A stretch of DNA of 64,000 nt from Minisyncoccia bacterium (GTDB lineage: Bacteria > Patescibacteriota > Minisyncoccia > UBA6257 > 2-01-FULL-56-20), in NCBI GenBank assembly GCA_049997875.1, contig JBEKRC010000003.1, positions 18,725-82,724 of the forward strand, written 5' to 3'. Each line of letters starts with the position of its first letter. Position 1 is the first letter of the stretch. Made by a program: the position numbers and the translations under genes. Shown in pieces: positions 3,529 through 47,742 of this stretch. The notes beneath the pieces were generated by a model. The model saw only the letters and a program-made list of their open reading frames with translations, had not been told where the DNA came from and made no database searches.

Positions 3529-3841
3529 GAAACGAAAAATCCCGCAACGAGCGGGACGACAGGCGACAATGCAGCACCTCCATCGTCCCTTAGCTCGAGG
3601 AACCTGGTTTATTTTTATTTATCGGAAATGGTAACCGGACTTTCCGCGGCTCCGCGGATCACCGTAGCGGCACTGTGCGGGATTCCCACCCGCTTCCCCA
3701 TTCCCGATAAGGACCTAATGACCTCTAAATTTTCAACGATGCTTTTCCAGTGTAAGAACCAACCCCAACACGCGTCAAGGGCTCTTCTGTGGATAACTCT
3801 CGCCCGCCAAACCCACGGCATAATCATGCATAATGACGCGT

Positions 3842-5079: not shown

Positions 5080-6246
5080 ATGCCCCCGGAAAAAAGATCT
5101 GTCATTTCCCGCGCGCGGAGCTGGTATGCGCGCTTTGAGCGGCCGATCTCATCGCTGTCGCTTGTCGGCGGTTTCGTATTTGACGCAATCACCCTGCGGC
5201 GCGTGGACGTGTGGCTGGATAATTTCTGGGTCATCGCACACCTTACGATCGTCACGATCTGCGCCGTCTGGATCAATCTCTTGGACAATACCGCAAGCGA
5301 AACCGGCGTGCGACCGGAAGCGGACCCTCACCGGCTCCACTTTTGGCTCGTGAACGTCATGCAATTCTTTTTCGGCGGCATTCTGTCCGTCTATCTTGTC
5401 TTTTATTTCCGAAGCGGCACGTTTGCGACGAGCTGGCCGTTCCTTTTGATCCTCGCCCTCGCGTTTATTGCAAATGAATCCCTGAAACGCCATTTCGCGC
5501 GACTCTCGTTCCAGATAGCGCTCCTATTCCTCGCGTTTTATTCCTTCGCCATCTACCTCATGCCGATCCTGCTCCATGAGATCAGCATGCGAGTATTCCT
5601 ATTGAGCGGCATAGTGAGCGTGGGCGCAATCGGCGTGCTCCTTTTTGTCCTTGCCCATTTCTCGCGCGAGCGGTTCCGGGGGCGGAGCGGTTGGGCAGTG
5701 CTCTTTTCCATCGTGGGCATACTCATCATCGTGAACGGCCTCTATTTTTTGAACCTGATCCCGCCGCTTCCCTTGTCACTTAAAGACGCCGACGTGTATC
5801 ACGCGCTCGTTGCAAACGGCCCCGGCAATTACACGGTGACCGACGAACACCAACCTACGACCGGCCTCGCGTCCGTGGATTTCCTCACGCGCTTTTTCGC
5901 CTTGAGCCAAACCGTCCACATCGTACGGGGCGATTCACTCACGGCCTACACCGCCGTCTTTTCTCCTACGGCACTGAACACGAACGTCGTCCATGAATGG
6001 CAGTACTACGACGCGGCGGCGGGCACGTGGGTCACGCGCGGCCGCATTTTGCTTTCCGTTGTCGGCGGTCGCGACGGCGGCTACCGCACCTTTTCCGAAG
6101 AACCCGCGATCACCAAGGGCCCTTGGCGCGTAAACGTGGAATCCCCGACCGGCCAGGTTATCGGACGCCTGAACTTTGACGTTGTCGTGCAAAACGCGGA
6201 ACCCGCGCTCGTCGCAGAAACGATCGGCGGAACAACAATGAATTGA
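5080..6246 (+). CDS. membrane protein with N-terminal polytopic region and C-terminal soluble domain (unknown function)
   Basis: 388-aa ORF. About 7 hydrophobic helices in the first 260 aa, then a hydrophilic C-terminal domain. No recognisable catalytic motif. Confidence 0.5.
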   Translation: MPPEKRSVISRARSWYARFERPISSLSLVGGFVFDAITLRRVDVWLDNFWVIAHLTIVTICAVWINLLDNTASETGVRPEADPHRLHFWLVNVMQFFFGGILSVYLVFYFRSGTFATSWPFLLILALAFIANESLKRHFARLSFQIALLFLAFYSFAIYLMPILLHEISMRVFLLSGIVSVGAIGVLLFVLAHFSRERFRGRSGWAVLFSIVGILIIVNGLYFLNLIPPLPLSLKDADVYHALVANGPGNYTVTDEHQPTTGLASVDFLTRFFALSQTVHIVRGDSLTAYTAVFSPTALNTNVVHEWQYYDAAAGTWVTRGRILLSVVGGRDGGYRTFSEEPAITKGPWRVNVESPTGQVIGRLNFDVVVQNAEPALVAETIGGTTMN

Positions 6247-6252
6247 TGCCGT

Positions 6253-6849
6253 CTATTTACCATATTTTTTCATAATCCGGCGATAGATCCGGACGAGAAC
6301 GAACATGACGATGGCGACGGCGACAACCGCCGCGAACAAACTCATGATGTTGGAAAAGTCGCTCCAATAGCTTCCGACCGCATAGCCGAGGGTGAGCGCG
6401 CCGAACGGCTCAATGAAATTTCCCAAAAAATCGTAGGTAAGAAAAATAAGAAAGGGCACCCCGACGAGGCCAGCGAGAAAATTCGCGATTGGGCTCAATG
6501 ACCCCGCGAAGCGAGTCACGAACACCGTGACGGCCGCATCCGTGCGCAACTCTTCCTTCACATACTCAAAGAAGCGGACTTTGTACAATCGCAGCACCCG
6601 AATGACCGTATCGCCGTAATGCCGCGTGAGTGCGTAACCCGTGAGGTCGCCCAACGTGTTCGCGACGACCGCAACCGCGAGCGAAAACCAAAAACTGAAA
6701 TAGCCCTGGCTGGCGAACGCGCCCACGGCGAGCAACATGCTGTTCGCGGGCCAAGGGACGATGACCGCGGCGGAGTAGACAATAAAAAAAAGCGCCGTGT
6801 ACTTATAGAGCAGGACATACGACAAAAGCGAGCCGAGGAGCGATTCCAT
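6253..6849 (-). CDS. DedA/SNARE-associated (VTT domain) membrane protein
   Basis: 198 aa. Motif region ...GYFSFWFSLAVAVVANTLGDLTGYALTRHYG... typical of the DedA/TVP38 family. Confidence 0.65.
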   Translation of the reverse strand: MESLLGSLLSYVLLYKYTALFFIVYSAAVIVPWPANSMLLAVGAFASQGYFSFWFSLAVAVVANTLGDLTGYALTRHYGDTVIRVLRLYKVRFFEYVKEELRTDAAVTVFVTRFAGSLSPIANFLAGLVGVPFLIFLTYDFLGNFIEPFGALTLGYAVGSYWSDFSNIMSLFAAVVAVAIVMFVLVRIYRRIMKKYGK

Positions 6850-44554: not shown

Positions 44555-45661
44555 CTATTGGCGCTGGTTTAGATACCCACTTGCAGCCGTGGTCGTCCCG
44601 AATTCTAAGGTTGCCCAAATGGCATCGAGATTCTTGTTTAATGCGGCCGAAGACGAATCTGAAACATTAGATGCTTTGGCGATTCCCACCACAAAGGGAA
44701 CACCATTCTGCTCGAAGCTAATATAGGCTTCAGTTTGCTCTCCTGCAATAGAAAATATTTCCTCGGCAGGATATCCAAAAAGCACGGTGGAAGTTACGAT
44801 AACAATGTTTTTTCCATCATTGAGAGTCGAATTCGCTGCCTGCTGGAACACTGGTTTCTCGCCGTTCGCCCACTCCTGAGGCGTCATTGTACCGGGTGCC
44901 ACTGTGATAAAATATGGTCCTGTATTCCAGAACGGAAATGAATCTGGCGTTGAAGGTATGGGTGCGATAGATACATCTCCGCCCGCTCCTGGAGAAAACA
45001 CCATTCGAAAACCAGAAGGAAGAACTATTGAAAATTGTCCGAGAGAGGAAAGCAGCTCTCCGAGTGAAACTCTTTGACCTTGACCCTCAACAGCCGTTTG
45101 CGATGGAGTTGCGGCCATTGGAATAGACTTGATAGCCACCAGCCCCACGCAGTCAATGATGGCCAAAAGCAGGAAAAAAGTAAACGTAACGGCAAAGAAA
45201 CGTTTTCTGTTCTTCAGATAAATAACCAGAAATACAAGGGCGACAATGCCATCGATGACCGCTTCAATAATGACCTGAAGGCGGGCATTAGGAGAGAAAA
45301 GATAGCCATGCGCAAAAATGCCGTAATATCCAAACGCCTTCAGGAATATGTACGCAGCCAGAACAATGTAGCGCCATAATCCCCGCCGCCCCGACCTCAT
45401 ATTCATAGCATCTTCAACTTTCTGTTGAAATGCCGGATTGGTCATCGCAGCTGCTTCGTAATGAGCCTGCGTCCTTCCTGCCATTGCGATGCCGATGATG
45501 ATTCCGATGACAGGGAATAAAACTATTATCCCGAGGCGGGCAACGAAGCTGCTATTTTCGGAAGTCCATCCAAAGAGATAGAGAATGAAAAATGAAAGAA
45601 GGAAACCAAGGATAACTCCGGCGAGACCGAGCATAGCTTTCCGAGCAATGGGACTAAACAT
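44555..45661 (-). CDS. membrane protein (5-6 N-terminal TM helices plus extracytoplasmic C-terminal domain), function unknown
   Basis: 368-aa ORF with good coding character and no identifiable motif. Confidence 0.5.
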   Translation of the reverse strand: MFSPIARKAMLGLAGVILGFLLSFFILYLFGWTSENSSFVARLGIIVLFPVIGIIIGIAMAGRTQAHYEAAAMTNPAFQQKVEDAMNMRSGRRGLWRYIVLAAYIFLKAFGYYGIFAHGYLFSPNARLQVIIEAVIDGIVALVFLVIYLKNRKRFFAVTFTFFLLLAIIDCVGLVAIKSIPMAATPSQTAVEGQGQRVSLGELLSSLGQFSIVLPSGFRMVFSPGAGGDVSIAPIPSTPDSFPFWNTGPYFITVAPGTMTPQEWANGEKPVFQQAANSTLNDGKNIVIVTSTVLFGYPAEEIFSIAGEQTEAYISFEQNGVPFVVGIAKASNVSDSSSAALNKNLDAIWATLEFGTTTAASGYLNQRQ

Positions 45662-46018
45662 GTTTTTATTTTAACATAACCTAAAATGTGGCGTTTCAAA
45701 CGCGTTCTGCTTACCTCCAAATGAACCGCCATCGGGATTTTCACGTCGCTCGCCGCTAAGACCGGCTCGCTCCCCGGAAACCTCTCGGTTTCCGGCACCT
45801 TCCTCCACGGGGAAACTACCGTTTCCCCGACCCCCTTCCCGGTTCAAATCCCTCCATAACAAATACAAGCAATGTGATGTGCTCTTTTGAGAGGATCTCG
45901 GAGGCGATTCGCGCTTGGTATCCGCCGAAGGCGGATGCGAATCGCCGAGAGCCAGCGGGCGTGCGCCGCAGGAGCGCGCGAACCGCGTCTCTCAAAAAAG
46001 CACATCACATTGCTCGTA

Positions 46019-46092
46019 CCGCCATCGGGATTTGAACCCGAGTTTTCGCCGTGAGAGGGCGACGTCCTAAGCCAAGCTAGACGATGGCGGCA
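46019..46092 (-). tRNA. tRNA-Glu (anticodon CUC)
   Basis: Hand-folded cloverleaf: acceptor GCCGCCA/TGGCGGT, D arm GTCTAGCTTGGCTTAGGAC, anticodon loop CTCTCAC, T arm GGG-TTCAAAT-CCC. CCA is not encoded. Confidence 0.8.
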
Positions 46093-46146
46093 TTTACCTG
46101 AAATCTTAACGGGATCCGCACTGAAAATCAATTCTCTGTAAACGGT

Positions 46147-47742
46147 CTAAAGGCGGTCCGGCGGAATGTTCTCGTAATTGATGATGTACTGGGCGAGCTC
46201 CTTGAACGCCGGCACGACGCTTTGCGCAGCGAGTGACGTTGAGGGCAACGTGTTCAAACGTATGAGCGCGATGAAACGCGGGTTGGAGGTAGGTCCGAAC
46301 CCCACGTATGAGTCAATCAAATTATTGGTGTAGCCGCCGTGCACGAGGTCGGGGATAAATGCGCTCCCCGTCTTCCCCGCTAAAGAATAGCCGTTGATGT
46401 TTGCGACCTGCGCCAGATCCACCGCATTCACCATCATCTGGGTCACTTGCGCCGCGGTGCTCGTACTTATCACCCTTCCCTGCGACTCCGGCGAAAGCGC
46501 CGCGTTCAGGTAGGGCCGCATCATGAGACCGCCGTTCGCGATCGCCGCAATAGCACTTACGAGCTCCATTGGCGTTACCGCCACGCCCTGACCGTATGCT
46601 GCCGTGTCAAACGCGACCTGCCGCGACTTCGGATTAAGCTCGCTCAAATTCCCCGCCACCTCTCCCGGCAGATCAATCCCCGTCTTTTGATCCAGGCGGA
46701 ATTTTTTCATGTAGCTTGTAAAAATGTCGTTGCCCATTTGATTTTCAGCGAAGATCGCACCAGTGTTGATGGAATGCTCAATCACCTCGGTTATGGTGGT
46801 GCCCGGACCGTACGGCCCGTGCGTCGTAAGATCATAGTTTGTGATGTGGGCGCTATTCACATTCACGTATCCCTTGTCGTCATACGTGGTGCTTGGCGTG
46901 ATCTTCCCCGCATCAATCCCCGCTGCCATCGTGAGCACCTTGAAGATAGACCCTGGCTCATATACCGCCTGGATGTCCGGATTCAAGAAATTCGCAATGG
47001 GCGAAGCGCTGTAGTTGTTCGGATCAAAATTCGGATCACCCGCCATCGCGAGAATTTTTCCCGTCCGGGGCTCTTCCACAATGACGCTGCCGCCGGTGGC
47101 ACCGTTCTGCGTCACAAGGTCATCCAACACTTTCTCGGCCTCAATCTGAATGTTCGGGTCCGTGGTCAAATTGATGTCGGTAGCATCCGCAAGCGTGCTC
47201 TCGTAAAATCCTTCAATGCCGTAATGGCCGCTCTCGCCGTTGTCCGTCGCGTTCGGACCCACGTACCCCAAGACCTGCGATGCCACGGTCCCCAGAGGAT
47301 AATAGCGGTCAGGTTCAAAGTCGGCGTACACTCCCTTGAGGTTCAGGTCGGTAATCTTCTGTGCCGCTGAGGGATCCGCCTTGCGCATCAAAAGCTCGTA
47401 TTGGTCGTTCGGTTTTGAAAAAAGTTTTTGGAGCGCGGCTATGGGCATGCCAAGAATCGGCGCCACTGTGTTCGCGGCCTCCGCTGCGTCCGCGATCGCC
47501 GCGGGAACCGCGTAGATCACCGGGAATTCCTGCTCAATGGCCGCCGGCAAAAGCGTGCCAGTATTGTCCGTAAAATAAATGGATCCGCGGCTGCCGCTTG
47601 TGCCCTTTGCCGCCGTTATCTCTGCCTGCGCTTTCGCGAAATAATAATCTCCTTTTGTGATCTGCAGCTCGTAGAGATGGAATCCCAGCACAAAATATGC
47701 CGCTACGAGCACTACGATGATTATTGCGAAGCGATAGGCCAT
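46147..47742 (-). CDS. penicillin-binding protein 2 / FtsI-type transpeptidase
   Basis: SxxK (SIFKV), SxN and KTG (KTGSA) motifs. N-terminal TM anchor. Confidence 0.85.
   Translation of the reverse strand: MAYRFAIIIVVLVAAYFVLGFHLYELQITKGDYYFAKAQAEITAAKGTSGSRGSIYFTDNTGTLLPAAIEQEFPVIYAVPAAIADAAEAANTVAPILGMPIAALQKLFSKPNDQYELLMRKADPSAAQKITDLNLKGVYADFEPDRYYPLGTVASQVLGYVGPNATDNGESGHYGIEGFYESTLADATDINLTTDPNIQIEAEKVLDDLVTQNGATGGSVIVEEPRTGKILAMAGDPNFDPNNYSASPIANFLNPDIQAVYEPGSIFKVLTMAAGIDAGKITPSTTYDDKGYVNVNSAHITNYDLTTHGPYGPGTTITEVIEHSINTGAIFAENQMGNDIFTSYMKKFRLDQKTGIDLPGEVAGNLSELNPKSRQVAFDTAAYGQGVAVTPMELVSAIAAIANGGLMMRPYLNAALSPESQGRVISTSTAAQVTQMMVNAVDLAQVANINGYSLAGKTGSAFIPDLVHGGYTNNLIDSYVGFGPTSNPRFIALIRLNTLPSTSLAAQSVVPAFKELAQYIINYENIPPDRL

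Follow-up and report, generated by a model that had tools for sequence, protein, structure and literature searches.

What lies between the tRNA-Glu(CUC) gene and the next protein gene in a Minisyncoccia genome, and how did it come to be there? The locus belongs to a 64,000-nucleotide stretch of contig JBEKRC010000003.1 (hereafter, the window), which comes from a Minisyncoccia genome (Patescibacteria, or the candidate phyla radiation, CPR) out of peat metagenomes. The initial annotation had seen nested palindromes and a duplicated tRNA 3′ end at this place, and had offered two explanations: an integration scar or a tRNA-linked structured RNA. Here, we report that the region holds one composite non-coding element of 293 bp at the tRNA-Glu 3′ end, and that this element is a complete member of a widespread, uncatalogued Patescibacteria (CPR; Minisyncoccia/Parcubacteria) family of structured units located just downstream of tRNA and tmRNA genes. 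The reading that we favour, with about even confidence, is that these units are compact, protein-less insertion elements for the 3′ ends of tRNA/tmRNA genes, where a conserved core would act as a folded strand, and two segments, termed b′ and b, would provide the tRNA specificity.

A 293-bp Insert Follows the Intact tRNA-Glu Gene

When read on the tRNA (minus) strand, the unit comprises tRNA-Glu(CUC), a long hairpin P0, the segment b′, a conserved core with three hairpins, and the segment b. Its parts, with positions in the window, are as follows.

46018-46091, minus strand: tRNA-Glu(CUC), intact, the anchor of the unit (ARAGORN 46016-46091; Rfam tRNA 46017-46091, 57.1 bits)
46018-46033, minus strand: proximal b copy, AAAUCCCGAUGGCGGU, tRNA positions 57-72, from the 3′ part of the T-loop to the acceptor-stem end
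45864-46018, minus strand: P0, a long hairpin of 155 nt directly 3′ of the tRNA (arms 46018-45989 and 45893-45864)
45841-45852, minus strand: b′, the anti-T-arm GGGAUUUGAACC, exact complement of tRNA-Glu positions 52-63
45773-45854, minus strand: conserved family core, consisting of the junction GAAC-CGGGAAGGGGGU, hairpin hpA, the junction UGGAGGAAGGUG and hairpin hpC
45829-45808, minus strand: hpA, perfect 9-bp hairpin CGGGGAAAC-GGUA-GUUUCCCCG
45795-45774, minus strand: hpC, perfect 9-bp hairpin CCGGAAACC-GAGA-GGUUUCCGG
45741-45772, minus strand: 3′ part of the core, namely GAGCGAG, the small hairpin hpD (GCCGG-UCUUAG-CGGC) and GAGCGACGUGA, as defined from family alignments and the fold
45725-45740, minus strand: distal b copy of the tRNA 3′ end, AAAUCCCGAUGGCGGU, an exact 16-nt direct repeat
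45690-45724, minus strand: native tRNA flank, UCAUUUGGAGGUAAGCAGAACGCGUUUGAAAC, which marks the insertion end and directly follows the tRNA-Glu 3′ end in the related locus L010

The syntenic loci of relatives were retrieved via the PBP gene that precedes tRNA-Glu. In L010 (PBP 76% identical), the tRNA-Glu 3′ end directly abuts CUUUUGGAGGUAAACGGGACGUGUUUGAAAC, and the junction, tRNA-Glu...GGCGGUAC|UUUUGGAGGUAAACGGGACGUGUUUGAAAC, corresponds to the sequence after the distal b copy in the window, the common flank being 33 nt long. Since the L010 flank is the sequence found beyond the distal copy, the window bears 293 extra bp bounded by the repeat; because of the 16-nt repeat, the exact junction can be drawn in two ways (insert 45741-46033 or 45725-46017). 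The 293 bp are an insertion relative to a related genome, and the empty site that the initial annotation had proposed to seek among relatives does exist. Two further relatives, L007 (PBP 93% identical) and L013 (73%), have the same order of parts as the window, each with its own sequences: past the tRNA stand a perfect hairpin, an anti-T-arm that matches the T-arm of that genome, the conserved hairpins, and a 15-18-nt copy of the genome's own tRNA 3′ end. In L009, only the long P0 hairpin is retained, without the core, and in L011 and L012 the anti-T-arm is followed by a different core.

The tRNA-Glu(CUC) gene does not encode CCA, the discriminator A at 46018 being followed by CG. The 16-nt repeat ACCGCCATCGGGATTT is exact (45725-45740 and 46018-46033) and not a chance occurrence; it had been recognized from the start, with coordinates off by 1-3 nt. 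The inverted repeat abutting the tRNA, first taken to be 24 bp long, is in fact composed of 30-nt arms (45864-45893 and 45989-46018) with 28/30 positions in Watson-Crick pairs and 95 nt between them. Its two imperfect positions are G-U on the minus (tRNA) strand and would be C-A mismatches on the plus strand. A search for other copies of the 24-nt arm returned only the two known sites in 64 kb (matches in 0/100 shuffles), and the P0 interior (45894-45988, 95 nt) contains two conserved sub-hairpins, GCGCGCUCCUGCGGCGC and CUCUCGGCG...CGCCUCCGAG. The two tandem hairpins noticed earlier are present as hpC and hpA (45774-45795 and 45808-45829, 9 bp each, perfect). The T-arm-like sequence, described at first as one that could not be folded into a tRNA, is there as well. 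It is not a tRNA in decay: the plus-strand GGTTCAAATCCC (45841-45852) and the T-arm of tRNA-Glu (46027-46038) are exact reverse complements. The insert is small, as had been suggested: its 293 bp carry no protein gene and no ORF (open reading frame) with a family match.

In the predicted fold of the window unit, AAAUCCC of the distal b pairs with GGGAUUU of b′ to form a helix, P1, which closes the core. The predicted folding energy of the region 45662-46091 is -211 kcal/mol for the minus strand (z = -9.8) and -191 kcal/mol for the plus strand.

The Unit Belongs to a Family Located Downstream of tRNA and tmRNA Genes

A retrieval motif common to the window, L007 and L013, GAACNNGGNNNGGGGTCGGGN{8,28}CCCGTG, was scanned over the JGI metagenome contigs and gave at least 118 loci, 10 of which were GC-rich chance matches and at least 108 genuine; the family statistics presented here and below are drawn from the matches listed. 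A tRNA or tmRNA gene is located on the same strand, no more than 300 nt upstream, in 86 of the 108 genuine loci, with a median gap of 58 nt. The remaining ones either are cut by a contig end (9/108) or have no such gene or only a tRNA remnant (13/108), and an opposite-strand tRNA was found in 0 of the 108. At least 18 amino-acid identities are represented among the neighbouring tRNAs, tmRNA is the neighbour in at least 6 loci, and the named hosts are labelled Patescibacteria or Parcubacteria bacterium.

At tmRNA as at all these kinds of tRNA, the order of modules is the same; read along the tRNA strand, it is: the tRNA/tmRNA gene, a hairpin, an anti-T-arm ending in GAAC, GGRRRGGGGUC, hpA, GUG..GGA, hpC with ACCG..GGU, ...GUGA, and the tRNA 3′-end copy. 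None of these modules is missing from the window copy, which also matches the exact retrieval motif. A family unit measures about 95-290 bp, of which the core, with its purine-rich junctions and its two or three hairpins, takes ~80-130 nt, its order being GAAC-NGGRRRGGGGUC, hpA, GUGGNGGAA, an optional hairpin, hpC (closing ACC...GGU, small loop), GAGCGA, another optional hairpin, and GAGCGACGUGA; in the family consensus, the latter is followed by a T-loop-like GAUU/AAAU. Thus, the suggestion that the window element might be the remnant of a larger island did not hold, as the element has the full set of parts of a compact family.

A covariance model of the core, R1, gave the window copy 86.8 bits (E = 1e-21; this copy is part of the seed alignment) and the family members 45-91 bits. 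The window copy was the sole match in 64 kb, and L008-L012 gave none. The model also revealed extra copies: in L076, two consecutive tRNA-Leu genes are each followed by a unit, and L110 bears three units in 14 kb. Contigs elsewhere carry 2-3 units within 14 kb as compared with one copy in the whole window. In the MAFFT alignment of whole units, the 3′ end was too ragged to support a full-length model, and the P1 and hpC statistics were computed by script.

Variant cores occur between the anti-T-arm and the tRNA-end copy in other loci. One is shorter, ...ACGGGGUCGCG...GUGAC, and another begins with GAAC-RRGGCGCUA...; such variants were seen in L015, L018/L115, L024/L129, L011:6036-6200 and L012:6061-6200. 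It is probable that a larger superfamily exists, of which the present family represents one branch.

In searches against Rfam 15, whose models include tRNA-like RNAs, tmRNA, T-box, YrlA and 6S, no family covered the unit in the window region at the gathering threshold, nothing relevant appeared at E <= 10, and six canonical members gave nothing at E <= 1. A known RNA family was therefore rejected as an identity, the weak sno_ZL1, Plastid-ycf2 and ylbH matches being due to chance. LOOT RNA (RF03000) was considered as a relative and dismissed as well, since its occurrences at L034:751-876 (89.8 bits) and L088:1012-1131 (72.9 bits) are unrelated neighbours of the units. A phage-borne element was likewise discarded: the strict motif is absent from IMG/VR, and the loose motif found there only GC-rich coding sequence and one tRNA. 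Full-text literature searches found no description of a tRNA 3′-end-linked element of this kind.

Segments b′ and b Are Specific for the Neighbouring tRNA

In each locus, both b′ and b are specific for the neighbouring tRNA. The segment b′ complements the adjacent tRNA from G53 via the T-loop and the 3′ strand of the T-stem and, in some loci, extends across the acceptor strand, up to 24 nt. Its longest run shared with the cognate tRNA is 11.5 nt on average vs. 6.0 nt with non-cognate tRNAs. At sites where the proximal tRNA and the distal copy differ, b′ agrees with the tRNA 119 times and with the distal copy 11 times. What looked like a T-arm fragment in the window is a functional and conserved segment, complementary in every locus to the tRNA next to it.

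The segment b is identical to the tRNA from about position 60/61 to the discriminator or the encoded CCA, forming direct repeats of the own tRNA 3′ end, and repeats of 10-22 nt lie 95-270 nt past the tRNA. Over the family, the repeats measure 8-22 nt, with boundaries set by tRNA coordinates (~60/61 to 73-76) and not by a fixed length. Upstream of the start of b identity, the element bears its own T-loop look-alike, GUGAGAUU in 28/72 loci and GUUC... in 8/72. Junction positions are sharp and constant in tRNA coordinates, b′ ending at the complement of 53-51 and b beginning at 60/61. The distal b is truncated or mutated in many loci (L074, L089, L092, L098). In L123, the T-loop and b′ make up a 9-bp inverted repeat around a 10-nt spacer.

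Several identities for the tRNA-related segments were tried and dropped. A plus-strand pseudo-tRNA was rejected, as its T-stem is unpaired and the segment is the complement of the real tRNA. A T-box-like specifier, with the hpC loop reading the anticodon, was also rejected because the loop sequences track the core subfamilies and not the tRNA identity. Finally, b′ does not systematically reach the CCA complement, so that a retroviral-type primer-binding site was excluded.

One explanation of the paired b′ and b is that the unit is a folded single-stranded DNA recombination site resembling the integron attC or CTX-phi attP(+). Annealing of b to b′ on the top strand would then rebuild the duplex tRNA 3′ end, with P0 and the core as dumbbell end-structures; one pair of strands would be swapped with the tRNA gene of the chromosome by a recombinase, the product being resolved on replication, and units with or without cargo would build up into a tRNA-anchored array. 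Consistent with this, b′ complements the proximal tRNA perfectly, down to the T-loop variant of that tRNA (the 119 vs. 11 above), and the order b-P0-b′-core-b is what a single crossover within b would yield for a circle [P0-b′-core-b]. The inverted repeat in L123 fits such a site too, as do arrays and cargo-flanking units (e.g., L110 with a degenerate copy, b*, before P0), and strand-specific tolerance of G-T pairs would hold for single-stranded DNA as well. However, no integron-type or Xer-type recombinase was linked to the units, the attC core sites GTTRRRY/RYYYAAC are unmatched, the cargo, where present, lies outside the P0-b′-core block, and the conserved unpaired junctions and GNRA-like loops fit RNA at least as well. 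We consider this explanation improbable.

The Hairpins Are Maintained by Compensatory Changes

In most family members, P0 has the form of a bidirectional intrinsic terminator: an A-run, a GC-rich hairpin of 9-28 bp and a U-run. The P0 of the window, with its tail UUUGUUAU, was not called by the terminator scanner, its arms and 95-nt interior being outside the scanner's limits. It represents a long version, with a 25-30-bp stem and a conserved interior, which is found in the window, L007, L009, L061 and L069. This interior is a conserved structured module made of a CGCGCUSCUGCGCG hairpin and a CUCUCGGC...GCCUCCGAG hairpin, and it occurs behind tRNA-Glu(ctc), tRNA-Arg(ccg) and tRNA-Glu(ttc). Compensatory changes were found in 29/42 pairs of the long P0. 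With equal penalties, P0 on the tRNA strand showed 19 G-U vs. 3 A-C pairs.

The core hairpins behave in the same way. In hpA, 98.8% of cells are paired and 82 cells are changed on both sides; the observed covariation was reached in 0/500 shuffles, and in slid controls pairing fell to 31-78%. Taken together, hpA and hpC comprise 882 Watson-Crick, 25 G-U and 4 A-C pairs; the loops are often GNRA-like, GGGA occurring 24 times. The hairpins are kept by compensatory changes, and G-U is tolerated on the tRNA strand only. Because of the stem covariation, the strand-specific G-U and the GNRA-like loops, the unit fits an RNA made from the tRNA strand; folded top-strand DNA would fit too.

These data bear directly on the view that the unit is a cellular structured non-coding RNA linked to tRNA genes and not mobile, the main rival reading, which we judge rather unlikely. 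An RNA spanning b′, the core and b would arise by P0 read-through and be excised by tRNA-processing enzymes; its closing helix, copying the cognate T-stem and sometimes the acceptor stem, would make it a tRNA minihelix mimic or an anti-tRNA with a possible role in tRNA processing, quality control, regulation or protection, and its gains and losses would be due to ordinary duplication and to deletion between repeats. The orientation, which is that of the tRNA in every locus listed, agrees with this view, as do the strongly conserved junctions, the covarying stems with G-U tolerated on the tRNA strand, and the common GNRA-type loops. In addition, a tandem G-A motif could arise from GAAC and GUGA at the foot of P1, the encoded CCA terminates b in several loci, and the window unit folds as predicted. 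In L018, L051, L114, L130 and L059, where b′ reaches into the acceptor strand, the helix amounts to an acceptor plus T minihelix.

On the other hand, a terminator-like hairpin and a U-run separate the tRNA from the unit, and no sigma-70 promoter of its own was found in 45500-46250. The acceptor stem is not formed in most loci because b′ covers the T-arm only, and many distal b copies are truncated or mutated. The occupancy of tRNAs within a genome is patchy, with close relatives differing at the same tRNA, and both the arrays and the near-identical cores at unrelated tRNAs point to spread by insertion. The idea of a 5′ leader of the downstream gene was rejected separately, as that gene is co-oriented with the unit in 37 loci and oppositely oriented in 23.

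The tRNA-Glu Site Is an Integration Hot Spot in Relatives

The segment between tRNA-Glu and tpiA differs among all relatives. In L008 (PBP 93% identical), tRNA-Glu is followed by a large serine recombinase gene, a split reverse transcriptase and bAvd, the latter two being parts of a diversity-generating retroelement. The recombinase (L008:5828-8749 = L170:8414-11335) is composed of Resolvase, Recombinase and Zn ribbon domains and belongs to a CPR family of >8000 homologs that are 65-84% identical. Its genes stand tail-to-tail with the 3′ ends of tRNA-Glu, tRNA-Val and tRNA-Lys (L008/L170, L171, L172-L175).

Could the window unit be the decayed scar of a classical integrase island, in which the attL/attR-proximal arms remained at tRNA-Glu after an internal deletion? 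This was the kind of explanation that the initial annotation had put forward in proposing an integrase attL/attR pair. It draws some support from the hot-spot character of tRNA-Glu, as evidenced by the L008 insert, from the relatives of the L008 recombinase at the three kinds of tRNA 3′ ends, and from the tRNA-Glu-to-tpiA region being different in every relative. However, random remnants would not yield the same ordered, covarying modules at 86 or more independent tRNA/tmRNA loci; the units are compact and lack no part, and their sharp junctions occupy constant tRNA coordinates; and the recombinase islands have no core within 10 kb and no b′. The scar explanation is largely refuted, and we assign it a very low probability. 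No integrase gene was found in or next to the units, and no evidence was found for a classical attL/attR pair. The initial interpretation is supported in part: the tRNA end is duplicated around an inserted element that is structured and possibly RNA, but this element is not what remains of an integrase island. The annotation's alternative, a tRNA-associated structured RNA, also fits, given that the stems covary and G-U is preferred on the tRNA strand.

A link between the units and the CPR-wide large serine recombinase was rejected as well, the islands having no core and the units no such gene nearby; the enzyme as a possible partner is a lead and not a finding. As a separate observation, the first ~60 nt past the tRNA in the recombinase islands L171 and L172 share the motif GAGACCGYGATTCC, which resembles the core 3′ end GACGUGAGAUUCC, a T-loop look-alike. 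Judged from this likeness of sequence, the islands and the core end may have a recognition sequence in common.

Signs of Spread and a Possible Mechanism

The preferred reading, that of a protein-less insertion element, draws on the signs of spread. Cores that are 85-92% identical occur at unrelated tRNAs (Leu-tag/Phe-gaa; Glu-ttc/Leu-taa; Leu-gag/Arg-tcg/Gln-ctg), and in each such set b′ and b are wholly different, each matching the local tRNA. A genome may hold several copies, and tandem arrays were found in L021 and L065 (one contig), L076, L110, L129 and L018; they are bounded by b copies, some with variant cores (L018, L015, L129). In L110, a second unit for the same tRNA-Ser is located past small genes spanning 2.1 kb, and a degenerate copy of the tRNA end, b*, stands before it, so that the block can be written as b*-P0-b′-core-b. 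In L088, L040, L125 and L029, no tRNA is found within kilobases of the core, which comes after cargo of the defence type or of other kinds. Only part of the tRNAs are occupied (1/5 in the window, 2/4 in each of L076 and L110), and close relatives differ in the presence of a unit at the same tRNA.

Genes beside the units in L088, L040, L125 and L055, judged by their N-terminal sequences alone, look like defence/restriction cargo: large PLD/helicase-like ORFs, RNase H-like, cyclase-like and DUF262-like genes, and a DNA methyltransferase.

Under the preferred reading, a protein-less mobile unit would land at the 3′ end of a tRNA/tmRNA gene and leave the tRNA intact. P0 would end or insulate the tRNA transcript, so that transcripts linking b′ to the tRNA would be rare; in such a transcript, b′ would win over the 5-bp T-stem and unfold the T-arm. 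The active module would be the folded strand, either RNA made by P0 read-through or single-stranded DNA, where the b′:b helix closes the core and displays the tRNA-specific sequence. A trans-acting enzyme encoded elsewhere might use this module to find the cognate tRNA gene and recombine with it, b being the crossover/homology segment shared with the target and the site of joining, and b′ helping to find the target. A stronger version is that b′ and b read the tRNA/tmRNA gene by base pairing and direct the insertion of their own element 3′ of the gene via a host or trans enzyme, the guides being rewritten from each new target. This base-pairing-guided version we consider doubtful.

Several observations weigh against the units being mobile. 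No integrase or transposase gene was found in or beside them in the window and ~700 kb of family loci, and the CPR-wide large serine recombinase, which does act as a neighbour of tRNA 3′ ends, is not near the units, its islands having, as noted, neither a core within 10 kb nor b′. The sole empty site (L010) could equally be the result of a deletion between two 16-nt repeats. No filled/empty polymorphism was seen within the population, L001-L006 all being filled, and no excised form was seen. The window has five tRNA genes, and a unit stands beside one. There is no nameable mechanism that accounts automatically for the rewriting of b′ and b at a new tRNA, and their match to the tRNA may originate in slow co-evolution or in gene conversion from the adjacent tRNA. 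Finally, the core is deeply conserved and rich in compensatory changes, a pattern seen more typically in cellular RNAs with a function than in parasites of recent spread.

Comparison with Known Systems

The nearest working analogies appear to be tRNA-targeted integrative elements on the one hand and guide-bearing, hairpin-ended non-autonomous elements on the other. Like tRNA/tmRNA-targeting islands, including the cis-mobilizable elements (CIMEs), which are integrase-less tRNA-targeted derivatives, the units are inserted at a tRNA/tmRNA gene with the tRNA left intact, and the insert is bracketed by a direct repeat of the 3′ part of the tRNA that starts in or near the T-loop. In the window, this is seen in the intact tRNA (57 bits), the bracketing repeat and the empty site in L010. 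Tandem accretion at one tRNA is common to both, the studied site being a hot spot in relatives. Unlike such islands, a unit is only ~95-290 bp long and has no integrase or other gene inside, with no integrase or recombinase linked to it; it possesses a covarying folded core and an inverted tRNA-specific anti-T-arm, and one homologous family serves at least 18 tRNA identities plus tmRNA.

The non-autonomous elements derived from IS200/IS605, described as palindrome-associated transposable elements (PATEs) or miniature inverted-repeat transposable elements (MITEs), have single-strand hairpin ends and read their target by pairing with a 4-5-nt internal guide. The unit resembles them in being small and non-coding, in its strand-specific hairpins, in inserting 3′ of a defined sequence without disrupting the target, and in having an internal segment (here b′) complementary to the flanking target. 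It differs in that its guide is 11-24 nt long and its 3′ end repeats the target, and no TnpA/TnpB was found. The unit does not fall under the definition of a MITE because it has neither terminal inverted repeats nor a fixed-length target-site duplication: the 30-bp repeat of P0 is internal and one-sided, and the element ends are not inverted copies of each other.

With attC and CTX-phi attP(+), the unit shares two inverted site copies with a spacer that can anneal to a duplex site, a conserved structure with variable sequence, and arrays anchored at one chromosomal site. It differs from them in lacking the attC boxes and any IntI/Xer link found, and in the high conservation of the unpaired core sequence. 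More specifically, the RYYYAAC/GTTRRRY boxes are unmatched since b′ ends with ...TCGAAC and the T-loop begins with GTTC, which places C where R is required.

Bridge RNAs, or seekRNAs, belong to the IS110/IS1111 elements. As with these, a structured non-coding RNA at the element end could pair with both target strands, as b′ would complement the top strand at 53-65 and b the bottom strand at 61-73. In contrast to them, the unit has no DEDD recombinase gene, a different fold, no separate donor and target loops, and no Rfam match. The tRNA-like domain of tmRNA, YrlA, the viral 3′ tRNA-like structures and mascRNA resemble the unit in that the 3′ end is a tRNA 3′ strand, sometimes with CCA, paired into a helix similar to the T-stem plus acceptor stem. 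The unit is distinguished by the absence of a T-loop/D-loop elbow, the core replacing the T-loop, and by a mostly unpaired acceptor part, and the Rfam models of tmRNA, tRNA, mascRNA and viral tRNA-like structures do not match it. Altogether, the mismatches with these classes (integrase element, MITE, attC, Rfam) lower the likelihood that the unit is one of these things, not that it works like one.

A large part of the diversity of bacteria falls to the CPR/Patescibacteria, whose genomes are tiny, so that an abundant, conserved non-coding element beside their tRNA/tmRNA genes needs explaining. If the units are mobile, they would exemplify the targeting of tRNA genes without an element-encoded protein, retargetable to any tRNA, which would bear on tRNA genes as integration hot spots and possibly on programmable insertion tools. 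If the base-pairing-guided version were true, it would be a CPR-specific programmable tRNA-gene targeting system of an undescribed kind. If they are cellular RNAs, they would form a new class of partner RNAs specific to each tRNA. Either way, the family accounts for a recurrent class of palindromes and pseudo-tRNA fragments found 3′ of tRNA genes in CPR bacteria, a class that island finders and annotation pipelines would otherwise misread, and it is a candidate for a new Rfam family with a ready seed alignment.

Gene Neighbourhood and Additional Observations

On the minus strand of the window, the gene order is mraZ, rsmH, ftsL, the PBP gene, tRNA-Glu(CUC), the studied region, a 368-aa ORF and tpiA. 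The two protein genes that flank tRNA-Glu and the unit are:

46147-47742, minus strand: PBP gene
44555-45661, minus strand: 368-aa ORF, membrane-like, without a Pfam match

In L007, a 224-aa ORF at 6139-6813 lies on the other strand and is unrelated to the 368-aa ORF of the window. A Mur ligase gene is located between the PBP gene and tRNA-Glu in L009-L013, and is absent from the window, L007 and L008. Despite the 93% identity of PBP, the tRNA-Glu(CUC) genes of L007 (5645-5734) and the window (46018-46110) are quite different (GGCCUCAUCG... vs. GCCGCCAUCG...). The divergence of the L007 leader from the window begins ~15 nt upstream of the tRNA, and L012 bears the same second type of tRNA-Glu(CUC) as L007. 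The entire tRNA with its unit seems to have been swapped as a block. Elsewhere in the window, an AdoCbl (cobalamin) riboswitch was identified at 3575-3724 on the minus strand (68.8 bits).

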